The position numbers and the translations under genes are program-made. Positions 11,796-64,000 of a stretch of DNA of 64,000 nucleotides are shown piece by piece; the stretch's first letter is position 1, and the number at the start of each line of letters is the position of its first letter. Source of the DNA: Candidatus Dormiibacterota bacterium (GTDB lineage Bacteria > Patescibacteriota > Saccharimonadia > UBA4664 > DATLOE01); the NCBI GenBank assembly GCA_035536395.1, contig DATLOE010000018.1, positions 16,193-80,192 on the forward strand. Reading direction: 5' to 3'. Below the pieces are notes generated by a model. It had not been told where the DNA came from. It did no database searches and saw only the letters and a list, made by a program, of their open reading frames with translations.

Positions 11796-11816
11796 TAGCG
11801 GTTGTACTGTACAAGA

Positions 11817-11886
11817 TCAGGGTGGCTGGACTCGAACCAACAACCGACAGCTGTGCCATCCGCTCTACCAATTGAGCTACACCCTG
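11817..11886 (-). tRNA. tRNA-like gene with canonical acceptor/D/T arms but a non-canonical anticodon arm (identity undetermined; possible pseudo-tRNA)
   Basis: Minus-strand read CAGGGTG-TA-GCTCAATTGGTAGAGC-G-GATGGCACAGCTGTCGG-TT-GTTGGTTCGAGTCCAGC-CACCCTG-A. The 7-bp acceptor, D arm, T arm (GGTTCGAGTCC) and U8 are fine. The 17 nt where the anticodon arm should be do not fold into a 5-bp stem with a 7-nt loop carrying U33. The variable region is only 2 nt and no CCA is encoded. Confidence 0.45.
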
Positions 11887-11912
11887 AAGTTTTCCGTCGC
11901 AATAATGTCACT

Positions 11913-46921: not shown

Positions 46922-47312
46922 TCAGATAATCCTCCAAAATAATTACGGCCGCCTCTTGGTCAACCAAACCCTTCTCTTTACCGCGCGCCTTTTTTGCACC
47001 CAGCCGATCTATAGCTGCCTCGCTAGTGCCAGCTTCATCGACCATCTCAACCGGTACGCCTAGTTCAGCCTGCAGCTCTTTGGCAAAGGCGGCCGCCAGC
47101 TTTGTTTGAGCCGTTTCCTCCCCCTCGAGGCTCCTGGGCAGGCCGACCACAACAGTATCTACATCCTCTGACGCCACTATTTGCTTGAGGCGCTCGAATA
47201 AATCATCATTATTGGAAAGAGTAGTGAAGGGTACTGGAAATTTGGCTTCCATGTCGGCAAAAGCCAGGCCAACCCGCTTTAAGCCGTAATCAATGCCTAG
47301 AACTTTAGCCAT
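46902..47312 (-). CDS. ruvX: Holliday-junction resolvase-like RuvX/YqgF
   Basis: LGIDYGLKRVGLAF...VVGLPRSLEG is canonical YqgF. Confidence 0.85.
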   Translation of the reverse strand: MAKVLGIDYGLKRVGLAFADMEAKFPVPFTTLSNNDDLFERLKQIVASEDVDTVVVGLPRSLEGEETAQTKLAAAFAKELQAELGVPVEMVDEAGTSEAAIDRLGAKKARGKEKGLVDQEAAVIILEDYLNEYDTA

Positions 47313-48934
47313 TACTGATTGTTTTCACCTAGGCCTGCGACCTTAATCTCTATCTTAATCCGCTTAACCAGCGGCGGCATATTGGTGGCCCAGACCGGAG
47401 AGAGCTTAATTTCAGCCCGTTCCACTCCAGGCTGGCGGGCAGCCAGCTCCACAGCTTCACCATACTTCTTGCCTTTCATTTCTTTGGCTAGGCTGCCGCG
47501 GTCGATCCTCGCCCCGGCGTAAGCCTCCACCGCGGCATCGAACTTACCACCCTCTTTCTTGGTCAGCTTAATGGTATCCGTGCCATCATCATAAATCTCA
47601 TTCTGGTCGCCTATCTGCTTCTGAATCTGCTTTTTGACCAGTTCCGAGAATTGGTTTTTATCAACCGCCAGAGCAGTGTAGGCGACCTCCATATTGATAG
47701 TCACTTGAGCGCCCTCTTGGTCAACTCCTGGAGTAGGAACGGCCGCGGTCACCTTTTGCTCAATCGATTCATTCAGCACCCGTTTGTCCTTGGCTTTAGC
47801 AACAAGCTCCTTGGTTGAACCTGGCTTGTCTTTCTCCAAGGCCGCCGTTTTGGCCTTATCTATATCACTTTGGGTTACCACCTGAATCGTTTTGGTCGTA
47901 CCGCCCTGCATTTGAGTGCCGCTGATCCTGAAATTAGAGTTTAGCGCCGGACTGGTATAGCTCCTGGGTCCCAGATTGTAATCATCGCCGTTTTGGGCGG
48001 CTGTCACATTCACATCAACAGTAGATGAATTACAGACGCTGCCACCGCCGCTAAATGACCCGCCAGGAACAGTTACAGCATTGTCTGTTGTGAAGTTCTT
48101 ACCCGAAGCGGTCATTACGGTTCCGGCCGGCAAGCTGCGTGAGCTGGAATCCTCACAGTTTTTAATACTGACCGAACCGCTTGCCTTGGTACCCACATCT
48201 TTTTTGCCAGTAGCCGGTCCTTTGGCCGTTAGGGTTTTGGAGACGTCCAGAGCAGTCGCCGGTATAATGCCGTCTTCATAATGAGGCTCCTGGGCATTAG
48301 TATCGGCCGTAAAACTGAAACTAGCATTCACCTGAGCAGCTTTGGCGAATAATGTTACCTTTGCGCTAGCCAAAAAGTAATTAGCGGCCAGTAAAAGAAT
48401 GAGAGCAACTACACCAGCAATAATCCACAGTGTGCGCTTCTGCAGCTGGTTAAAATCCGGTATGCGCTTCTTCTTAGCACCAGCCGGTTTAGCGGCCGCG
48501 GCTAGGGGAGTGGCGGCTGGCTCGGCCAGAGGGGTCTTGTGTACGGCGGGCGGTTCCGGCTCTGAGTGGACTGGCGGGGGAGGGGGAGGCGGGGGAGTAC
48601 CGACTTCCCCTGCATCTACCTCCTCTTCTGGTCCCACCGGAGCTGCCGAGGGCGGGATGCGCGGCTCTTCGCCAACCTTGGAAGCAACTGGTATCCCCAC
48701 CCGGCCGGCCAAGTTACTCGCCTGCTTGTCGTTGGTTACCAGTACCAGCTTCTTGCCGGCATCATCGGCCGCTTTTTTAATCAGTTTCTGGTTTATGACA
48801 GATTGGAAAAGTGTGGAGCGTCCAGCCGCTACCACCTGCACGGTATCACTGTCGAAATGCAGCAGCTTATCTATCGCCGAAGTAATGTCTTCGTCGGTTT
48901 CCAGGTATATTGCGTTGTCTTTGTTTGCTGCCAT
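47312..48934 (-). CDS. Hypothetical bitopic membrane protein with poly-Pro linker, between the ftsA-like gene and ruvX
   Basis: 540 aa; N-terminal soluble domain, PPPPPPPP linker, TM helix LWIIAGVVALILLLAANYFLA, large Thr/Ser/Gly-rich extracytoplasmic domain. Overlaps the ftsA-like stop (ATGC) and the ruvX start. Confidence 0.5.
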   Translation of the reverse strand: MAANKDNAIYLETDEDITSAIDKLLHFDSDTVQVVAAGRSTLFQSVINQKLIKKAADDAGKKLVLVTNDKQASNLAGRVGIPVASKVGEEPRIPPSAAPVGPEEEVDAGEVGTPPPPPPPPVHSEPEPPAVHKTPLAEPAATPLAAAAKPAGAKKKRIPDFNQLQKRTLWIIAGVVALILLLAANYFLASAKVTLFAKAAQVNASFSFTADTNAQEPHYEDGIIPATALDVSKTLTAKGPATGKKDVGTKASGSVSIKNCEDSSSRSLPAGTVMTASGKNFTTDNAVTVPGGSFSGGGSVCNSSTVDVNVTAAQNGDDYNLGPRSYTSPALNSNFRISGTQMQGGTTKTIQVVTQSDIDKAKTAALEKDKPGSTKELVAKAKDKRVLNESIEQKVTAAVPTPGVDQEGAQVTINMEVAYTALAVDKNQFSELVKKQIQKQIGDQNEIYDDGTDTIKLTKKEGGKFDAAVEAYAGARIDRGSLAKEMKGKKYGEAVELAARQPGVERAEIKLSPVWATNMPPLVKRIKIEIKVAGLGENNQ

Positions 48935-54247: not shown

Positions 54248-55279
54248 TTAGGCAGCGGTAATTATGCCACCGCCTAAAACTAAATCGCCATCGTAGATAA
54301 CGGCCGATTGGCCGGCAGCGATAGCCCGCTGCGGTTTAGCGAACTTGATTGTATCGCCATTAACTTCACAATCCACTAATTCACCGCGATGGCGCAGGCG
54401 TACCTGATACTCCTTACCGTCTTTCGGCGGCTCGTTAATCCAATGCGCGTTCGTAATCCGGATCACCCTACTCTGCAGTTCCAAATCATCAGGATTATCT
54501 GTTACATACACCTCATTCTTTTTCATATCTTTGCCGGTTACAAAGTATGGCTTGCCGCCGCCCACACCCAAACCGTGGCGTTGGCCAATAGTGTAGAATA
54601 TGGCCCCATCGTGAGCACCAATTACTTTGCCATCGCAAGTCTTAATATCCCCCGGCTCGGCCTCTACATACTGCTGCAAAAAAGCCTTCATGCCCACCGG
54701 GCCGATAAAGCAGATACCCTGGGAATCTTTTTTGCCAGCATTTGGTAAGCCGAACTTTTCTGCCAGTTTGCGCACCTCACTCTTTGGGTAGGCGCCGATT
54801 GGCATTAAACTTTTGGCCAAGGCCTGGCTGGTTACGCGGTACAAAAAGTAGGTCTGGTCTTTACCCTCATCGGCCGCTTTGTACAGTTTGCCCCTGGCCG
54901 TCTTGGCATAATGGCCGGTAGCGATTCCGTCGGCTCCGTCGGCCAATGCGGCCTGTAGAAACAGCTGGAACTTAATCTCTTGGTTGCACATTACATCCGG
55001 ATTCGGGGTAAGCCCTTGCTTGTACTCCTCTACCATGTAATCAACCACCTTCTGTTTGTATTCCTTTTGAAAGTCAAAGACTTTGAATGGAATATTGAGC
55101 GCAGCGGCCACGGCGCGGGCATCGGCTAAGTCTTCCTTCCACGGGCACTCGGCTCCAGGCAAAACTTGTGTCCAGTTCTTCATATGCGCGCCCACCACGC
55201 TATAGCCCTCTTTCTGCAAAAGAGCGGCCGTTACGGAGCTATCCACCCCGCCACTTAAACCGACATAGACCTTTTTCAT
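54248..55279 (-). CDS. mnmA: tRNA-specific 2-thiouridylase MnmA
   Basis: PP-loop VGLSGGVDSSV and catalytic Cys regions (NPDVMCNQEIKF, QGICFIG); start taken at MKKVYVGL. Confidence 0.9.
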   Translation of the reverse strand: MKKVYVGLSGGVDSSVTAALLQKEGYSVVGAHMKNWTQVLPGAECPWKEDLADARAVAAALNIPFKVFDFQKEYKQKVVDYMVEEYKQGLTPNPDVMCNQEIKFQLFLQAALADGADGIATGHYAKTARGKLYKAADEGKDQTYFLYRVTSQALAKSLMPIGAYPKSEVRKLAEKFGLPNAGKKDSQGICFIGPVGMKAFLQQYVEAEPGDIKTCDGKVIGAHDGAIFYTIGQRHGLGVGGGKPYFVTGKDMKKNEVYVTDNPDDLELQSRVIRITNAHWINEPPKDGKEYQVRLRHRGELVDCEVNGDTIKFAKPQRAIAAGQSAVIYDGDLVLGGGIITAA

Positions 55280-55371
55280 AACAAGATAATATAATCTCTT
55301 CTTCCCCAAAGAAGCAAATTATTATGGGGAATCAAAAAAGCCCCGGGAGGGGCTTTTTAATAAGCTTTTAT

Positions 55372-55848
55372 TTATCTTTTTGCTGGGGCGGGTGTTTGAG
55401 TTTGGGTTTCTTTATTGATGTTAAGTGTAGCAACTTCAATCAGCTTGTTGCTGGTAGGGCGATACAGATAAGCCTTTTTGGCCTTGGTGTACAAAAGCAC
55501 CTTGTCGCCGTTCTGGGCGTTAGCAAAGAAGGGTTGGCTCTTGAGCTTACTGGCATCTACCACAGTAGCTACAGTAGGCTCCTCATCGCCAGGAAGAGCA
55601 ACAATGGCGCCCACCTTTTTTATTAGGCTCTGTGCTTCTTCCTTGCTGGCCTGCTGCGGGTTACCGAGTTTCTTCAGCTTGGCCTGAGCTTGCACGTTCT
55701 GATAATACAAGAAGCCGCTTAGCGCTAGCAGTACTGCAATGGCGCCAATAATCGCCCATTTCTTCCATCTGCTCGACTCTTCTAATTTAAGATTTTGAAA
55801 TGAGCTGGGTGGCTGTGCCGGGGCAGGACCTGTGCCGAACTGATTCAT
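55372..55848 (-). CDS. Hypothetical membrane-anchored protein
   Basis: 158 aa; Pro/Gln-rich N-terminus, one TM helix (WAIIGAIAVLLALSGFLYY), soluble C-terminal domain. Confidence 0.45.
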   Translation of the reverse strand: MNQFGTGPAPAQPPSSFQNLKLEESSRWKKWAIIGAIAVLLALSGFLYYQNVQAQAKLKKLGNPQQASKEEAQSLIKKVGAIVALPGDEEPTVATVVDASKLKSQPFFANAQNGDKVLLYTKAKKAYLYRPTSNKLIEVATLNINKETQTQTPAPAKR

Positions 55849-55933
55849 GTATCTCCCTCACATAATTACTTATTACCTACCCAGTATATCCAAGCCCCTT
55901 ATGCTGGTCAAATCCAAGTTTGGTTATGCCTGA

Positions 55934-58900
55934 TTAGGGTTGGTTAATGCTGGTTTTGGCGTTATTCACACCTAGCGCGATCCACGAGAACTGCATATTA
56001 TCGGCTGCTGGCTGCTTAAGTACAATGTCGAACCCATTCGGCGTTATGTTGGTGTAAGAGTATTCGCTAAACTGCCCGCCGCCGATATTCACCGAAATAG
56101 CCGGGGTTACGGCGTACTGCCTATCGAACTTCACGGTTACTTTCTGCTCACCGGCTTTAATCACGGCGAATCCTGCGGTATCACTGTTAAACGTGGGCCG
56201 GCCCGCAAACTCCACATCGGCGTTAAATAGGACATTGCCGAAGAAGGTGGCTATCTTTTCAAAGAAGCTTTCGCCCTTGAACCTGGCCGGGCCGTTCACG
56301 GTCAGCCCGCCGCCTACACTAAGGTCCATTGCTACTGTTAGTGATTGCGCGTTCAGACTCTGCAGGTCGGTTTCGGTTGAGCTGGCGCCCGATGTATCAG
56401 ACTCCTTGGCACCACTTAAGCCCTCTACCTTACTCTCTAGCTCTTCTATCCGGTTGGTGATGGAGGTTAAGTCCTCGCCAATAGCGCCATTGCTGTAGCC
56501 GCCGCCCACAATGGCCAGCGTACTACCCACACCGGTACCGCTGAACGGCATAGCCGCCCGGCCGATGATGGCACCCTGCTTAGTAGCCCGCATAGCTACA
56601 CCGGGGGTGGAAGAGGACGTAAGCGGATCGCCGGCCGCTACCGGGCCGTTCTCTGTGCTGACCTTTACCGGCACCTTACCGCTAATGGCCACAATCGTTT
56701 CCTGGCCGCTGGCCTCCCTGCCCTCACTTATTACCAAGTTAGGCGCGCTGGTAACCACACCGACTAAGTTTGTATCGTACTGAGTCTGGGATTTAACGAC
56801 CTTGTCTGGGTCGGCAGTATCTATGGAGACCACATCGCCAGTGGTAATAGATTTATCGCTGGCAAAGTACTTTTCTCCCAGGTCGGCTCCAATTACTTGA
56901 TTTGCCCTTAAGATATCCGCACTTACTTCGCCGGTAAAGCTCGCAGATGTTTGCGATTCGGTTGAGCTTGATGATTTAGCCTCAAGCTCAGCAATCCGTG
57001 AATCCAGCCCGGTTATCTGCGTATCTACCCCAGCAAGTTTTTGTGTATATTTCTCATCTAGACTTTGCAGCCCGTCGGAAGCCAGTAGTGCATTGGCATC
57101 CACCTTGTTGTCTAATTCTTGTATTGCCAGTGCTAGATGTGCCGTAATAAATATATAGTCGATTCCGCGAATTAGGCTAGGGTTGTCTGGCTCATAAAAA
57201 ACCAGACGAGGATCTATTTCAGCAACTTCTTCAGCTATAAAACCAATCGAAGATTTATTGTTTTCGTTAAACTCATAGCTTACTGGCCTTAAGGCATTAA
57301 CTATATCAAGCCCGCTTTCAGAAGCGCTAAGGTTCTCTATGTTGTGCTTGTAGCGCTCAGATGACACCGTGCAAGAAGTGGTGCTTCCGGCGCTCACTAT
57401 ACGGCCTGAACCCGATGTGCTGATCTGGCAGACAACGGCATTGGTGGCTGATGCATCGGTGCCAAGGTTATTAATTGTTAATGAGCCGTTTACATTCATA
57501 GTAAAAGCGCCGTTACTAGCGATACGCATTCTCTCTGTGTCTGAAAGACCACCAGCTGCTACAGTATAGAATGATAAACGGCCGGGTGCGCTCGTACTGG
57601 TGAATGTTCCATCAGCTTGGCCCAAGATATATGCTCCGGTATGGAACCCGGAACCACCACTTCCCCTGAAGCTGATGGCCCCAAGGTTGTCATTGGCCAC
57701 GACTGCTGTCTGTGTACCCAAAGTATCTGACTTGCTGCGATTAAAGTCGAGGAGACCTTGTTCGTTAGCGGTGGAGTAGTGACTAATAGTTAATCCACCA
57801 TAGTTGTTAGTTCCACCCGCGGATACAAGCTCTTGCTGTTGACCGAATCGTATCCCTTGCCCCGCAGTTGCTCCCATAATAAGCCTTCCTGAGCTGTCAA
57901 AGACAGTCGGCGTGGTGTCTGCATCGCCAGTTTGGTCATTGATACGCAGTGAGAGGCCGGTACCGAGATTGGTGATCATCGCGAGAGTCCCGGCGTTATT
58001 GGCGCCAGTCGAGGAAATCCTAAGACCTGTGCCGGTGTTAGCAGCATTGTTACCGCTCATCATTATGTCTACCATCTTGCCCGTGAATGCAGCCGAACTA
58101 CTGGTCACTAATAGTCCCGTACCAGAGGTAATGGAGTTGGCAGTTATAGTTTCTAGGCCGGTACCGGTATATGCACCGGTGGTAGTGATGTTCAAGCCGC
58201 TGCCAACTGTAGCGGCGCCCATAATTAGGTCTACCAGCTCACCGGCTGCCAGTAAGTTTGCGCCTCCACCAGTTATAGACAAGCCAGTGCCTGACGTCTG
58301 GGCAGTTTGAGACAAAGTCACACCCGTACCACTAGTAAGGGCATCCATCGTAAATGTCCAAGGGTTTTGGGTAGTAGCAGTGCTCCAATTGAACAGCGTA
58401 GTAAATGCCTGGTGATCAAGCACTAGGTTGCCAGTTGGAGCCGTCAGCTGGTTCCAGGCACCGGCCGCGTCAAGGTCAGATAGCGCGCCATTCTGACATT
58501 TCTTTAGCAGGTTTTCGGTAGCGTTAGCCCAGATGCGGAACTCGCCGAGGGCACAACCGGCTGGGTTACCGGCCTCTTCAGTAAAGCTTAAGTAGTCACT
58601 GCCAGAACCGTTGCCTACAAGCATTAGCCCTGAGGTTTGAGTGGTCGGGGCACTGAACAAAAGCGTGCCATCGCTGACATTGCTAATGGTTTCGCCGTTT
58701 TGCAACCGAATATCTATGCCTGTACTTGGGGCGAAGCTAAGGCCGACGTCCCAGCCGCCACCTATATTAATCGCTGTGGATGTCAGCCGAGCTGCATCAG
58801 CACCTTCGGTGAGAGCACCAATCTTAAGCCCGTTTATGGTATCAGTCCCAGCCGCATTTGTTGGGCTAAAGGCATCGGTCTCAATAATGTTGTAGGTTAA

Positions 58901-61900
58901 AGCGTCAGTAGCGCCGCCAGCGAAGCTAGGGGTGAGGTGTAATACGTCTCCACTGGCATTGGAAGAGGCGTGGGAAATGTAGAGTCCGTCTACGCCACTA
59001 GTGGCAGCGGCTTGGCCGGAGTTAGAAATTACCACCATGTCTACAGTGGGAGCGGCCGAAGCGGTAATTTGGGTATTCGATCCAGCGGCTTGATTAATTA
59101 CAAAATCGCCAGATGAGTTTTGAGTAAACGTAATATTACTCGTGCCATTATTCGTAATGGTGTAGGCTGGGTTGTCAGTTGAGTCTAGGGTGTAGGCGTA
59201 GGCTCCGGTGTCGCTGATGTTGAGGAACTCGACGCCAGCATCTTGCATGATGAAGTCGCCTGTTGATGAGAGGTTGGTGACATAGTTACCCGCACCATTA
59301 AGTATCCAGGTGAATGTATTAGCCCCTAAGCTCGAGCTAGTCACTTCATCCAAGGCCATCGCATTTGATATGTCATCCCAGTCGATACAGTCGGTGCAAT
59401 TAAAGGTTGTTACAGGCGCTGCATCGATTAATGCTCCATCCAGGAAAAGCGAGCCGTCGACTTCGAGGTCATCCTGAAGGTAGAGGTCATTGTCGGCAGT
59501 CACCTCCCCGGCAGCCGTATGGGAGGCAGCGCCACCGGCGTTAGAGATAGCGTTGTAGGCCAGTCCAGCAGCTACGCCGCCGATGGCAAAAGTATCTGTG
59601 TCGCCGAAGATGATGTTGCCGGCACCGGAGTCGGCATTTAGAGTAATGTCTCCTGAACCAGCATTGATGGTGGTAGCTGAGGCGGCAGATGTTGAGCCCA
59701 TGATAATTGTCTGGGTTGAAGTGCCGCCATTGCCAATGCGGATGTCATGAGCGGTCGTAGAGTTGCCGATCTGCAGTGAGCTTGCGCCTGAACCGGCATC
59801 AAGTGACAAGGTCGTGCCGGCTACATTGTTACCTATAGTTATGACGTCGGCCGTGGTACCGCCATCGCCAATGTGGATCGTGTCGGCAGCCGAGCCCACC
59901 CCGATGTTAATCGTGCTGGCGGCTGCTGCCTTACCCAGGGTTATGGTGCCGTCATCCAGGAACTGCACGAACGGAGTGCCGGCATCCTGCACAATGAAGT
60001 CGCCGGTGGAAGAGAGATTATTCACAATATTCCCGCTGCCGGCCGCCGTGGTAGTAATAGCACCTGAGCCATTATTAGTAATGGTGTAGGCTGGGTTGTC
60101 AGTTGAGTCTAGGGTGTAGGTGTAGGCTCCGGTGTCGCTGATGTTGAGGAACTCGACGCCGGCATCCTGCACAATGAAGTCGCCTGTTGATGAGAGGTTG
60201 GTGACATAATTGCCAGCACCATTAAGTGCCCAGGTGAAGTTATGAGCACCTAGGCTTGAGGTAGTTGGGGCGTCTAGGGCCATGGCATCAGAGATGTCAT
60301 CCCAGTCGATACAGTCGGTGCAGTTAAGCAAAGTAACGGGTGTAAGATCAACGGTGGTGCCATCGACTTCCAGATCTCCCTGGATATATAGGTCATTGTC
60401 AGAGCTAATAGCAGCGTTCGAGGCTGCGCCGCCGGAGTTAGTTAAGGCATTGTAAGTTAATGCGTCATTATTAACACCGCCTATATGAATAACATCGCCG
60501 TCTGTAAAGCGGACTTCGTTTGAGCTGGAATCAAGGACTAGATCCCCGCCCCCGCCGGATTTTAAGAAGACCGAATCTATACCGGTGTAGGCCTGGGCGG
60601 CGGAAATAGTTACGGTGCCATTGGCGTCAACATCAAAGTTATCAAAATCTATCGTACCAGTGGTTCCTAATATACGGTTCGGCCCGATAGAAAGAGCGTT
60701 TACAATCGAGGCATCAGAAGCATCAAAGGCTGTAGTAACTGGATTGCCGCCAGAGCTGGTGACTAATATCCCCTGAGTAAGAGTAGAGTCAGCATCGGCA
60801 TGATCAAGCCGGAGTAAAGTTTCGGTGGCACCGCCGCCGACAACGTTGTTGTTCTGGATCTGTACCAGCCTCTGTGAATTATTGTCGGTCGTAGCATCAT
60901 TGGTAAGCGCGAAGGTAAAACCATTAAAAGCTGCTGCAGTTGCTGCAGTATCCCAGGTAAAGAGTGTTGCATACTCTGAGTGATTTAACCCTAAGTTGTT
61001 GTTTGGGTTTGTCAAATCGGACCAAACAGTACTACCACCGCCACCGCCACCGCCACCGCAGGTTTGCCATTCGAATTGGGAGGAACTAGATTCAAAACTT
61101 AGACACTCTTCGTCCCCCGGCGCGTCGAGCGAATTCAAATCCGAAGTACCGATTGTACCATCGAGTATTTCGCTTGAACTAATTGAGCCATTAGGCAGAA
61201 CAACTTCCGTATCCCCCAGCCCGTCAGTGTTTACTACGAGACTTGTTGTAAGTCCACCGCCTAATGTCAAGCCGGCCGCACCGCCGGGCATAATGGTAAG
61301 CGCGGCGTTGGAATCATCATCTTTAGCTGTCAGAGTCACCGTACCTGAGTCGTTTCGCCCAAAGGTAATTGTGCCGTCAGTGTTACTAGAAAGACTCTCG
61401 CTGGTGCCAAAAAACAAATCGCCACCAGACGCAGTCAGGTCGCCAGAAATTGTAACGTTGCCAATAGTACCGGCGTCTGAAATTGTAAGTAAATTATTTG
61501 CTCCGTCGGTAATAGTGAGTGATCCGCCATTGCTAATTGCGACAAACGGCGCACCATTGGAGAATGTGATAGGTGTCGCAGACGAAAAGGTCCATGAACC
61601 AGAAATTGTTTCGTTTTGGTTCTTGCGTGTAATTAGAGAATTCACGTAGTCAATTACTATGTTTGCCTCGCCAGCGGGAGATTGATTTACGTCAAAATCC
61701 GACCCAAAGAAGTCGATCGTCGAAGCACTTGGAGCCACAGAAATATCATTTTCTTCAATGCTTACGCTTCCGCCCAAATCAGAACCACATTGCCAAATAT
61801 TGTTGGTGTTATCCCATTTTAGAATTTCATTGTTAACACAGCCCTGAAGCAAAGTCAGCTGGTTATTGGAGCCACCCTGGAACTCAAGTCCGGAGTTGCT

Positions 61901-64000
61901 TGATGTCCCGCCAGTGCCATCTGCACTGGTCAACAAGTTAACACTTAAGCTATGGCTAATATTTTCACCTGATCCCGCACCGGTTGTAGAAATACCGTTG
62001 CCGGCTGTGATGTTAGCTGTATAGTCACCTGCAGTATCCGCTCCCAGCGCCACTGAGTTTGGCTGGATGGTAGTTAGTCCTACGCTGTTTATCGAGACGT
62101 CACCTGACAAACTAGTGCTGTTCCACTGAGAACCATCACCTACCAGCAAATTGCCAGACGTTGCAGTAGTACTGCCTAGTGTTGCCCCATTAATTTTGGC
62201 GACCGTTGGGTTGGGATAAGTGCCACTTAAGTCACCGCCGGCCGCGCCGCCTGGTGTGGTTCCAGATATTGTTACGTTGCCGGCAAAAGTCAGACGGCCT
62301 TTTGAATCAACTGTGTATTGCCCTACCTGGGTAGCGCTGCCGTAGGTGCCAGGGCTAACTGCCGTATTGGCTAGAGTCAGAGCCCCTGAGCTAGCTAGGG
62401 TTGCATCACCTCCCAGTGTTACGAAGGTTGGTACACCGCTAGCGTTAGCCACAACCAGCTGCCCGCTAGTGCCAGCAGCTGTAGATTGTAGCGCTCCAGA
62501 TCCATTCCCATACAACAAGCCATTTGAGATAAAGTTGGTGGCTCCGGTGCCGCCGTATTGGACAGCAATAGTGCCGCCCTGCCAGGTTCCGCTGGTGACT
62601 GTGCCTACAGTTGTGATGTCGGTAAGGTTGCCGGTAGTTATGAGGGTGCCGTTAACATTCGGTGCCGTGAAGGTGCGGGTGGTGCCTGGGCTGATGCCTG
62701 AGGCTTCAAAGGCGATTTGCTTGGTTAGGTCGGCGTCATCAAAAAGTCTAAATAGCGCATCACTAAAGGTGTTGTTACTGGTATTGTCATCGGTAGCACA
62801 GACCCATTGGTTGGAGGCGTTGTATTTAAGTACCTGGCTAGTAGCACAATCTATTAAACTGACTCCGTTGCTATCTACCTCTAGGCCTTTGTTTGCCTGG
62901 ACGGCTACGGCAATATCGTTGGCGCTAGCTGTTATACCGTTACCGGCGCCGATGTTAAGAGTTACTGTATCTGTCGCACTCACTGCAGAGGTTAGCCCTG
63001 CCCCGCCGGCTACAGTCAGGGTGTTGCCATCATTGATGGACTCAGGGGCGCCGCTGTCTCCGGCTAAGCTGAAGCTAGAAAAACTACCGCCACCATCTGT
63101 CGCACACGCCCAAGCCAAGCCGTTCCACTTGAGGATTTCGGTATTTGCACAACTTCGAATAAGCGAAAGTCCACTAATGCTGGTCTGCAGCCCTGAACCG
63201 CTCTGCAGGTTCAATCCAATCGTGTCAGCCCCAGCACTCAGGCCATCGCCAACCCCGACATTCAGGGTTACATCCCCGGTGTCACCCCCGCCTGCCAAGC
63301 CTGTGCCGGCATTCACGGTCGTAATATCGCCACTGCCGCCGCCACCTGAATCAGTCGTAGTGGTCAGGATGGTAGTACCGCCTCCCCCGCTAGGCTGCAA
63401 CTGAACAGCGGTCGTACCGCCTGGCCCCGGAGCACAGACACCGACAATTGCCAAATTACCCTTTTCACAACCCGGCACTTTACCGCGTAGGAGATCGGAG
63501 TTCAGGTTCTGCACCAAACCCGTGTCGGGGATTCTAAGATAAGACGTGTCGGGAATCGTGAATGTGTACAGGCTGGTAATATTACCCTCTCCATCGGGAG
63601 CAAACACATCATTCACATCTGGGATGCGAGGAAACGGCGCTACCCTATTACGCAGCTCTGGGTTGATCTTCTCTAGTACGTTCAGTGATGTCTGACTGAA
63701 GGGCTTAAGCTGCCGAGCCAGGAAGGAATTAGGGGTTTGGAATACGAATTTCTTCGAAGCCGGACTTTTCTTAAAGTAGCCGAGAGTTTTGGCCGTACTA
63801 TCAGGAAAAAGTATAAAGAGAAGCGTAATAATAGTAATAAGCGTCAGGAAAATTCCGGCCAGTACGCTTGCAGCGGTAATGCTAACCTTGCGAAACCTGT
63901 GTAGTTTGTGGATAGCGGTATGGTGTTCGCCTATAAGCGCATGGGCGACGGGATCGTGAATCGTCTTTTTGCCGTTACCGCCATTTTGCGCCTCGGGGCC
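55934..64000 (-). CDS. Giant membrane-anchored fibre/adhesin-like surface protein (>2,680 aa; N-terminus beyond window end) with C-terminal peptidase S74 intramolecular chaperone domain
   Basis: The track ORF (55934-63616, GTG start) has no stop upstream in frame. The frame stays open to position 64000 and encodes a TM anchor (...[29 protein letters not shown]) with no ATG/GTG/TTG upstream, so the true start lies beyond the window. Body: Gly/Thr/Ser/Asn/Ala-rich beta-type repeats, three Cys-bracketed modules (C..EILKWNG..W.CATD), two near-identical about 100-aa repeats, and a GGGGGGGG tract. C-terminus: S74 motif [12 protein letters not shown]...[24 protein letters not shown] at about 57000-57370, a coiled coil, then a terminal domain homologous to the C-terminus of 16159-18465. 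Confidence 0.75.
59140..59460. repeat. Intragenic direct repeat copy A (about 300 bp, roughly 90% identical to 60070-60390)
   Basis: Long runs such as tgtaggctgggttgtcagttgagtctagggtgtagg[c/t]gtaggctccggtgtcgctgatgttgaggaactcgacgcc and gtcatcccagtcgatacagtcggtgca recur at both places. Confidence 0.8.
60070..60390. repeat. Intragenic direct repeat copy B
   Basis: See copy A; encodes ...[77 protein letters not shown] twice. Confidence 0.8.
61037..61066. repeat. (GGT/GGC)n microsatellite encoding poly-Gly inside the giant gene
   Basis: accaccgccaccgccaccgccaccgca on plus, encoding [10 protein letters not shown] on minus. Confidence 0.8.

Follow-up and report, generated by a model that had tools for sequence, protein, structure and literature searches.

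Probable footprints of past in-frame recombination in a giant fiber-like gene of a Saccharimonadales-like bacterium

Do similar direct repeats within the gene for a giant bacterial fiber-like protein mark a locus that varies at present, or are they traces of recombination that occurred in the past? The question is raised by a 64,000-nucleotide (nt) stretch of contig DATLOE010000018.1 (positions 16,193 to 80,192 of the forward strand; NCBI GenBank assembly GCA_035536395.1), hereafter, the window, in which a very long gene on the minus strand (hereafter, the giant gene) carries a pair of similar segments and a tract of glycine codons. The initial annotation of this DNA held that both elements are substrates for RecA-mediated deletion or duplication and for slipped-strand mispairing, and that they could thereby drive length or phase variation of a surface fiber. 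The repeats are real, and we consider it probable that they bear the footprints of past intragenic recombination, namely, an old module duplication, a recent exchange that encompassed 141 nt, gain and loss of whole periods in frame, and drift in the length of a glycine hinge. Variants of this gene that differ in length or in cassette content can arise in frame, at a low rate; the repeats do not constitute an on/off switch.

The open reading frame (ORF) of the giant gene extends from position 55934 to beyond 64000, without a stop codon up to the final base of the window, and the 5' end lies outside; the start at 63616 given by the ORF lister is wrong, because the frame remains open further upstream. 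The translation is 100% identical to a database protein, HVE81114.1 at NCBI (P0001 hereafter), with a full length of 2882 amino acids (aa). Throughout, ORF residues are numbered from the Val at 63616, which corresponds to residue 323 of P0001; the coordinates of all features are collected in Table 1.

A repeat finder and blastn, run both on the gene against itself and on the entire window, recovered the same pair of repeats, denoted A and B for the copies closer to the C-terminus and the N-terminus of the protein, respectively. The copies are 274 nt long, and align without gaps at 86.9% identity, with their starts separated by 924 nt (308 codons), a geometry close enough to the two segments of about 300 base pairs (bp), roughly 90% identical and about 930 bp apart, that the initial annotation had described and proposed to verify by comparing the gene with itself. 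Both copies, which encode a module of roughly 90 residues (ORF residues 1406-1491 for A and 1098-1183 for B), are read in frame with the giant ORF and, like it, on the minus strand; approximately 650 nt of unrelated sequence separates them, and their similarity (blastn E-value of 2e-91 in the 64-kb window) goes far beyond what chance would produce. The only other long repeat in the window is a 177-nt pair with 69% identity at the far left end. Within the giant gene, there are no further repeats at the DNA level beyond this pair and a short third copy of the stretch encoding NLSSTGDF, which lies 180 nt downstream of copy B's own NLSSTGDF and opens the next beta-unit; the other repeats that are recognizable at the protein level are only 36-47% identical, so that the characterization of A and B as far more similar to each other than to the rest of the repeats stands.

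The similarity between A and B is, however, very uneven. The 36 mismatches leave exact blocks of at most 43, 39, 35, and 29 nt, with 79% identity over the first 119 nt and 96% identity over the next 141 nt. Furthermore, the protein homology is longer than the 274-nt core: ORF residues 1020-1190 align with residues 1318-1498, so that homology reaches approximately 75 residues upstream of each core copy, albeit with only 51% aa identity. Past the ...TNNG sequence, the similarity stops abruptly (23% aa identity). The module thus delineated, which consists of a CxxC motif and beta-units, did not match any Pfam family.

One line of evidence comes from synonymous sites. In the left, diverged part of the module (72 codons; 51% aa and 57% nt identity), 20 of the 37 codons for identical residues differ synonymously, and in the first 33 codons of the core (79% aa and 75% nt identity), 12 of the 26 do. 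Over the last 61 codons of the core (89% aa and 90% nt identity), the corresponding fraction is 7 of 54, as against 32 of 63 in the rest of the module (Fisher P = 1.3e-5). Two controls show what protein-level selection alone leaves behind in this family. Between the window and its closest relative (L001, introduced below), even stretches with 90-95% aa identity differ in 53-61% of the codons for identical residues. Likewise, the two module copies of a more distant homolog, P0003 (locus L008), are 89% identical at the protein level over 83 codons, with 74% identity of the DNA and different codons for 58% of the identical residues. Because synonymous sites diverge in these controls, selection on the protein does not hold third positions alike in the giant gene, and the near-identity of the 141-nt patch appears to be young, pointing to an exchange after the split from the L001 lineage. 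By the same token, the saturated synonymous sites in the left parts of the modules indicate that the duplication itself is old. The similarity between A and B is composite: approximately 120 nt are kept alike by protein constraint, and we read the patch as the result of recent gene conversion or of the copying of a unit.

These observations bear directly on the alternative under which the copies, duplicated long ago, never exchanged sequence and were subject to purifying selection of very uneven strength, the core being simply slow to evolve. Conservation of the TGDF...DNPAYTITN motif and another core motif across the family would fit this explanation, and so would the first third of the core, which is 79% alike in protein and yet shows 46% synonymous differences, as constraint alone predicts. 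The last 61 codons, however, do not behave in this manner, with only 13% of the codons for identical residues differing, compared to 51% in the rest of the module, 52-61% between orthologs, and 58% between the P0003 copies; over the part of the stretch that is available in L001, 31-56% of such codons differ. The explanation by constraint alone was therefore rejected on the strength of the synonymous-site controls, and we regard it as unlikely, even if it is the most viable of the alternatives.

Comparison with homologs suggests what was exchanged. Relative to the second module copies of P0003 and P0101, which run directly from ...TGDF..QD.G..F to the next stretch, copy B contains exactly 60 extra residues (180 nt), and the homogenized patch lies inside this insert. 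The extra unit extends to the second NLSSTGDF stretch, in agreement with the distance of 180 nt at which NLSSTGDF recurs in copy B. Units of this type (NL.GTGDF..QD.G..F.T.SD.GA....LDATDNP.Y.ITN.GS...) are present as many repeats in distant members of the family, for example, P0014 and P0121. The simplest reading of this configuration is that one beta-unit was copied from module A to module B, or in the reverse direction, by conversion that would have been anchored on short shared stretches.

Relatives of the giant gene were sought by scanning the GTDB genomes, the JGI metagenomes, and IMG/VR, which yielded one relative at 74% identity and two distant ones; no close relatives turned up in the JGI metagenomes or IMG/VR, exact-sequence look-ups for strain-level variants found nothing on record, and there are no relatives at least 90% identical to the giant protein among approximately 15 billion proteins (the 90% cluster has a single member). 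The closest relative, L001 (CAYLLP010000031.1, a contig from a metagenome-assembled genome (MAG) labelled as gammaproteobacterial), is 74% identical at the aa level over 298 residues and shares the pair of helix-turn-helix (HTH) domains, the transmembrane (TM) helix, and the Cys-loop motifs that are described below. Its module is a mosaic that is B-like up to ...YNAL and A-like afterwards, including the 3-residue and 6-residue indels of copy A; this second stretch is 76-85% identical to copy A vs 68-75% to copy B. L001 is collinear with residues 1180-1359 of P0001 and then shows a better match to copy A. Such a joint is what would be expected from deletion of one 308-residue period between B and A; conversion of the right half would produce it as well.

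The more distant homologs differ in the number of modules. P0003 is collinear with P0001 over residues 1178-1470 and then resumes at residues 1800-1967, so that one period is missing, leaving a single module at this site as opposed to two in the window; a spacer cassette (ITLGKAAAA...) is located further along P0003, where it separates copies 2 and 3. P0138 contains two modules 306 residues apart, in a layout like that in the window, and P0137 contains one. Altogether, the CxxC motif was detected in 40 of the 244 family proteins retrieved, 1-4 times in each, with spacings of roughly 200-1060 residues. In P0127, P0001, P0131, and P0003, the copies within a protein are more similar to each other than to any copy elsewhere (up to 96% aa identity in P0127). 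The module is rare: when its profile was searched against 1.84 billion representatives, just 124 proteins reached E <= 1e-3, and each of these contained 1-23 matched stretches. The breakpoints in the architectures of the homologs fall within the repeated module, which is the trace that homologous recombination between repeats leaves behind. P0014 and P0127 also contain very large, nearly identical internal repeats of several hundred residues, indicating that wholesale recent duplication occurs elsewhere in the family.

Taken together, these data favor the following scenario, which we deem probable. Copies A and B would be paralogous copies of a module that consists of a conserved CxxC motif followed by a beta-unit of roughly 45-60 residues and recurs every 200-400 residues in the putative extracellular part of a giant membrane-anchored fiber protein. 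The 141-nt stretch would have been made alike recently by recombination within the gene, via either gene conversion or copying of a 60-residue beta-unit, with the exchange probably anchored on NLSSTGDFI(V/M)QDAG and another shared short stretch. Over evolutionary time, the modules would act as crossover points at which whole 300-residue periods are added or removed in frame, resulting in fibers that differ in the number and order of cassettes, and the length of the Gly8 hinge would drift by slippage of 6- or 9-nt units. The repeats, the homogenization at synonymous sites, the gain and loss of modules with junctions inside them, and the differences in hinge length are direct observations; the mechanism of recombination, the surface location, and any effect of length on function are inferred.

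Several points weigh against this scenario. L001 is the sole close relative, and its contig ends inside the module, which is compatible with the presence of one or several modules in this genome. The direction of the events cannot be polarized, that is, deletion in the relatives cannot be told apart from insertion in the window, and two sequences alone cannot separate gene conversion from a recent partial duplication. Codon bias could have somewhat reduced the number of synonymous differences in the patch. Two complete homologous genes lack DNA repeats of comparable similarity (the best is a 250-nt repeat at 74% identity in L008; L009 has none), so homogenization appears to be a sporadic, rare process. 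Finally, an AlphaFold2 model of one module, built from a 9-row alignment, is weak (mean pLDDT 53, pTM 0.31), and both the surface location and the fiber nature of the protein are deduced from predicted features.

The glycine tract also bears on length change. Its 24 nt read GGT GGC GGT GGC GGT GGC GGT GGT, with no homopolymer run longer than 2 nt, and are reported by Tandem Repeats Finder as a hexamer in 4.2 copies. Thus, the tract does encode eight glycines, as originally described, with eight codons rather than the nine implied by (GGT/GGC)9. It follows the fourth of the five Cys-loop motifs in the protein and is itself followed by a conserved domain that starts with S[ST]VWSDL. A glycine run is found in the same linker of the homologs, with 6 residues in P0003, P0138, and L001, 7 in P0137, and 8 in the window. 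The tract in the window is perfectly periodic at 6 nt, which has a chance probability of approximately 0.0065 given the usage of Gly codons in the gene; the tract of L001 is (GGCGGAGGC)x2, with a different internal periodicity of the DNA. Each lineage, then, shows its own internal duplication, which fits past replication slippage. The Gly8 tract is, by all appearances, a conserved flexible hinge of slightly variable length. As a substrate for slippage, four in-frame hexamer units are weak, and the reading frame is unchanged by any slippage event.

Could the locus nevertheless be programmed for high-frequency variation, with RecA-mediated deletion or duplication and slippage now producing length or phase variants? 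In line with this idea, the direct repeats are in frame, and their carrier is a surface protein that presumably contacts the host of an episymbiont lineage; past exchange and the gain and loss of periods have left footprints, and hinge length differs among homologs. Phase variation, however, is contradicted by the geometry: the spacing of 924 nt equals 3 x 308 nt, and the glycine unit is 6 nt long, so that every event is in frame, only length or cassette content can change, and on/off switching does not occur. The substrates are weak as well, with only two copies that are 87% identical, a longest exact block of 43 nt, 650 nt of unrelated sequence between the copies, and approximately four hexamers. 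In Escherichia coli, the minimal RecA processing segment is about 25-30 nt; the exact blocks here are just above this size, and mismatches further depress exchange. Moreover, two homologous genes lack similar DNA repeats, and the hinge differs by just 0-2 residues among homologs that are 35-74% identical, which is not hypervariability. The original proposal that these elements serve as substrates for recombination and slippage is thus supported on the evolutionary time scale, by the homogenized patch, the gain and loss of periods, and hinge lengths of 6 to 8, and phase variation is not supported; we consider programmed variation improbable, marginally more so than constraint alone.

The locus can be compared with known variable systems. 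The alpha C/Rib proteins of group B Streptococcus and Aap/SasG are length-variable repeat surface proteins of Gram-positive cocci. Like these, the giant gene contains in-frame repeats within a large (putative) surface protein, with units that are lost and gained without breaking the frame (here, a period of 308 codons) and a number of units that differs between relatives. However, the coccal genes contain many near-identical, head-to-tail DNA repeats that vary between strains and during infection, whereas here, identical head-to-tail repeats are missing, and there are two copies 924 nt apart, with 87% identity overall (96% in the 141-nt patch); changes in repeat number with junctions inside the repeats are seen only at the level of distant homologs (P0003, L001; 1-4 modules). 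Simple-sequence contingency loci of Neisseria and Haemophilus also consist of a short, perfect tandem repeat in a surface-protein gene, with a length that differs between relatives. There, the tract is long and uninterrupted, and the unit shifts the frame; here, the unit is 6 nt long and in frame, with approximately four repeats encoding a glycine hinge, so that slippage alters the length of the hinge rather than expression. There is also a parallel with giant adhesins of the Bap/Esp and RTX types, which share concerted evolution, homogenized patches, and family-wide variation of the copy number, although the module described here is rare and without a Pfam family, and its carrier combines a MerR-type HTH pair with Peptidase_S74.

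The initial annotation had itself named an artefact of assembly collapse as one outcome that would undo its interpretation. An artefact, be it collapse, a wrong graph path through the repeat, or a strain chimera, has to be considered given that the source is a MAG and that the L001 contig ends exactly inside the module, where assemblers struggle. Nonetheless, there are 36 differences between the two copies, and the longest block that they share exactly is 43 nt, below the expected final k-mer sizes of typical assemblers. In addition, the extra unit of copy B has its own unique 3' part (vs TSNITFTQ) along with 6 private differences, the reading frame is unbroken over 8 kb, and the two-module layout with a spacing of approximately 306-308 residues recurs independently in P0138. 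An artefact is accordingly quite unlikely. The weakest candidate is a diversity-generating retroelement, with A and B as its template and variable repeats; such elements have been reported in Patescibacteria and involve two near-identical repeats of approximately 100-150 nt. This explanation was rejected and can be considered practically negligible because all four bases are represented among the 36 mismatches in each copy, without a preference for adenine, A and B are both coding sequence from the middle of the gene, and a crude motif check of ORFs of at least 200 residues in the 64-kb window, the giant gene excepted, found no [FY]xDD motif of a reverse transcriptase.

If past in-frame recombination did indeed shape the repeats, the gene evolves in the manner that is ordinary for giant repeat proteins, by exchange, gain, and loss of modules. 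This would be of use for the assembly and annotation of such genes, given that contigs break at the modules as in L001, and for the choice of domain boundaries.

Table 1 Features of the giant gene and its surroundings in the 64-kb window
Feature	Window position	Strand	ORF residues	Remarks
Giant gene	55934..64000	-		Window carries approximately residues 194-2882 of 2882 aa
Single TM helix, predicted from the translation by inspection	63806..63880	-		Basic stretch HKLHRFRK before the helix
Cys-loop copies (five)	~63.1, 62.8, 61.8, 61.1, 58.5 kb		~156-172, 258-275, 591-607, 836-852, ~1700	
Putative Gly8 hinge, (GGTGGC)x3 + GGTGGT	61034..61057	-		After Cys-loop ...FEWQTC, before conserved STVWSDL domain
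Left part of module B, diverged	60341..60559	-	1020-1092	51% aa and 57% nt identity to left part of module A
Copy B, N-terminal copy of CxxC module core	60054..60327	-	~1097-1188	
Homogenized patch in copy B	60068..60208	-		141 nt, 6 mismatches to copy A (96%)
Third, short copy of NLSSTGDF stretch	59978..60034	-		90% over 42 nt (59978-60019)
Left part of module A, diverged	59417..59665	-	1318-1400	
Copy A, C-terminal copy of CxxC module core	59130..59403	-	~1405-1496	
Patch partner in copy A	59144..59284	-		6 mismatches to patch in copy B
Peptidase_S74 (intramolecular chaperone) domain, SSERYK motif	57200..57364	-	2085-2139	PF13884
Partner ORF	55372..55848	-		158 aa, single TM helix; directly downstream of giant gene

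The carrier gene is of more interest than the repeats, combining an HTH pair, a TM helix, a fiber of more than 2000 aa, an S74 domain, and a small conserved partner. At NCBI, HVE81114.1 is labelled just as 'MerR family transcriptional regulator'. Two HTH domains of the MerR/excisionase type occupy residues ~72-177 of P0001, at the N-terminus, and are followed by the predicted TM helix and by approximately 2600 residues rich in Gly, Thr, Ser, Asn, and Asp. This arrangement implies a cytoplasmic N-terminus, with the putative fiber located outside, on the cell surface. The Cys-loop motif, C-x5-[IL]-[LK]-[WY]-x6-8-W-x-C, is present in five copies, each followed by a D/G-rich linker, and is retained in L001, P0003, P0137, and P0138.

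The assignment of the S74 domain is significant (a score of 44.3 bits, where the Pfam cut-off is 22, and E = 2.2e-11), with additional matches to PHROG 7841 and 1210. The SSERYKHNI sequence aligns with SDERLKREI of the tail-fiber chain 8jov, with a weak E-value (0.07) and agreement of the motif columns; a search of the PDB with the whole giant protein returned nothing useful. The Ser...Lys motif of putative self-cleavage is thus apparently present at the start of the domain. In phage fibers and tailspikes, such as the K1F endosialidase and the L-shaped fiber of T5, Peptidase_S74 is an intramolecular chaperone. The giant protein resembles these in its significant S74 match with the Ser...Lys motif, the long Gly/Ser/Thr-rich fiber-like part, and the mosaic evolution of cassettes. 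In contrast to the phage proteins, it is encoded in a chromosome, among housekeeping genes, and is TM-anchored behind DNA-binding domains; furthermore, S74 in phage fibers is the released C-terminal end, whereas here it is followed by approximately 420 conserved residues that comprise a coiled-coil-like region and a weakly H_lectin-like end. This tail is among the best-conserved parts across the homologs.

The MerR-type combination of Pfam domains (PF12728/PF00376/PF13411, often together with PF13884) was found in approximately 40 of the 120 best matches, all of them 1800-4500 aa long, so the architecture with an HTH pair, a TM helix, a giant fiber, and S74 recurs in dozens of proteins of Patescibacteria. 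No account of this protein family, whether in Saccharibacteria or in the Candidate Phyla Radiation, came up in full-text literature searches. In episymbionts, a protein of this kind is a candidate for host attachment, and cassette variation would bear on host range. A bolder interpretation, which we put forward as speculative and doubtful, is that a host-contacting fiber coupled via a single TM helix to two DNA-binding domains of the MerR type might function as a contact-sensing, membrane-tethered regulator and, together with the partner, might represent a widespread, undescribed system of Patescibacteria, the cassettes being reshuffled at the CxxC modules to track host surfaces. Were this so, the repeats would be working joints of host-range diversification rather than passive leftovers of duplication.

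The genes around the giant gene are housekeeping ones (MnmA, AlaRS, a methyltransferase, FtsA, YceG, and a LysM-CHAP hydrolase), and the G+C content is uniform along the window. The AlaRS shares 75-76% identity with that of Candidatus Saccharimonadales, and all its named neighbors belong to Saccharibacteria or Patescibacteria. The giant gene therefore belongs to the chromosome of a Saccharimonadales-like bacterium and not to a prophage. The source MAG is named Candidatus Dormibacteraeota at NCBI, even though its AlaRS is closest to that of Candidatus Saccharimonadales (75%); the label is probably a misclassification, judging by this affinity. L001, similarly, is labelled as uncultured Gammaproteobacteria and yet carries a Saccharimonadales-type giant gene.

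The partner ORF is 49-53% identical at the aa level to the ORFs located downstream of the giant-gene homologs in L008 and L009, and a Pfam scan of it gave no match; the two genes look like a conserved two-gene cassette. In L004 and L005, the closest relatives by AlaRS (75-76%), the gene order ...ColicinV/CAP-MnmA-AlaRS...FtsA-GlxA-RuvX-YceG is retained, and comparison of their AlaRS neighborhoods with positions 54248-64000 of the window revealed no giant gene upstream of MnmA. Because the giant gene is missing from this place in both, it and its partner sit at a break of synteny.

The window contains three other features of note. A second fiber-like gene (position 1 to ~1130, minus strand) runs off the left end; it encodes a TM helix followed by approximately 75 residues of collagen-like G-X-Y repeats and, after these, two repeats of approximately 59 residues (216-392 vs 489-665; 69% nucleotide identity). 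At positions 11815-11887 of the minus strand, ARAGORN called a tRNA-Cys with the anticodon ACA and C at position 33; its anticodon stem contains one G.G mismatch and two G.U pairs, and it scores 46.5 bits against the Rfam tRNA model, compared to 62-69 for the other two tRNAs, so that this is an odd or decaying tRNA. Finally, a 540-aa protein encoded next to FtsA (47312-48934, minus strand) shows a weak match to the GlxA beta-barrel, and its homologs in L005 and L006 also show a weak match to Baseplate_J.

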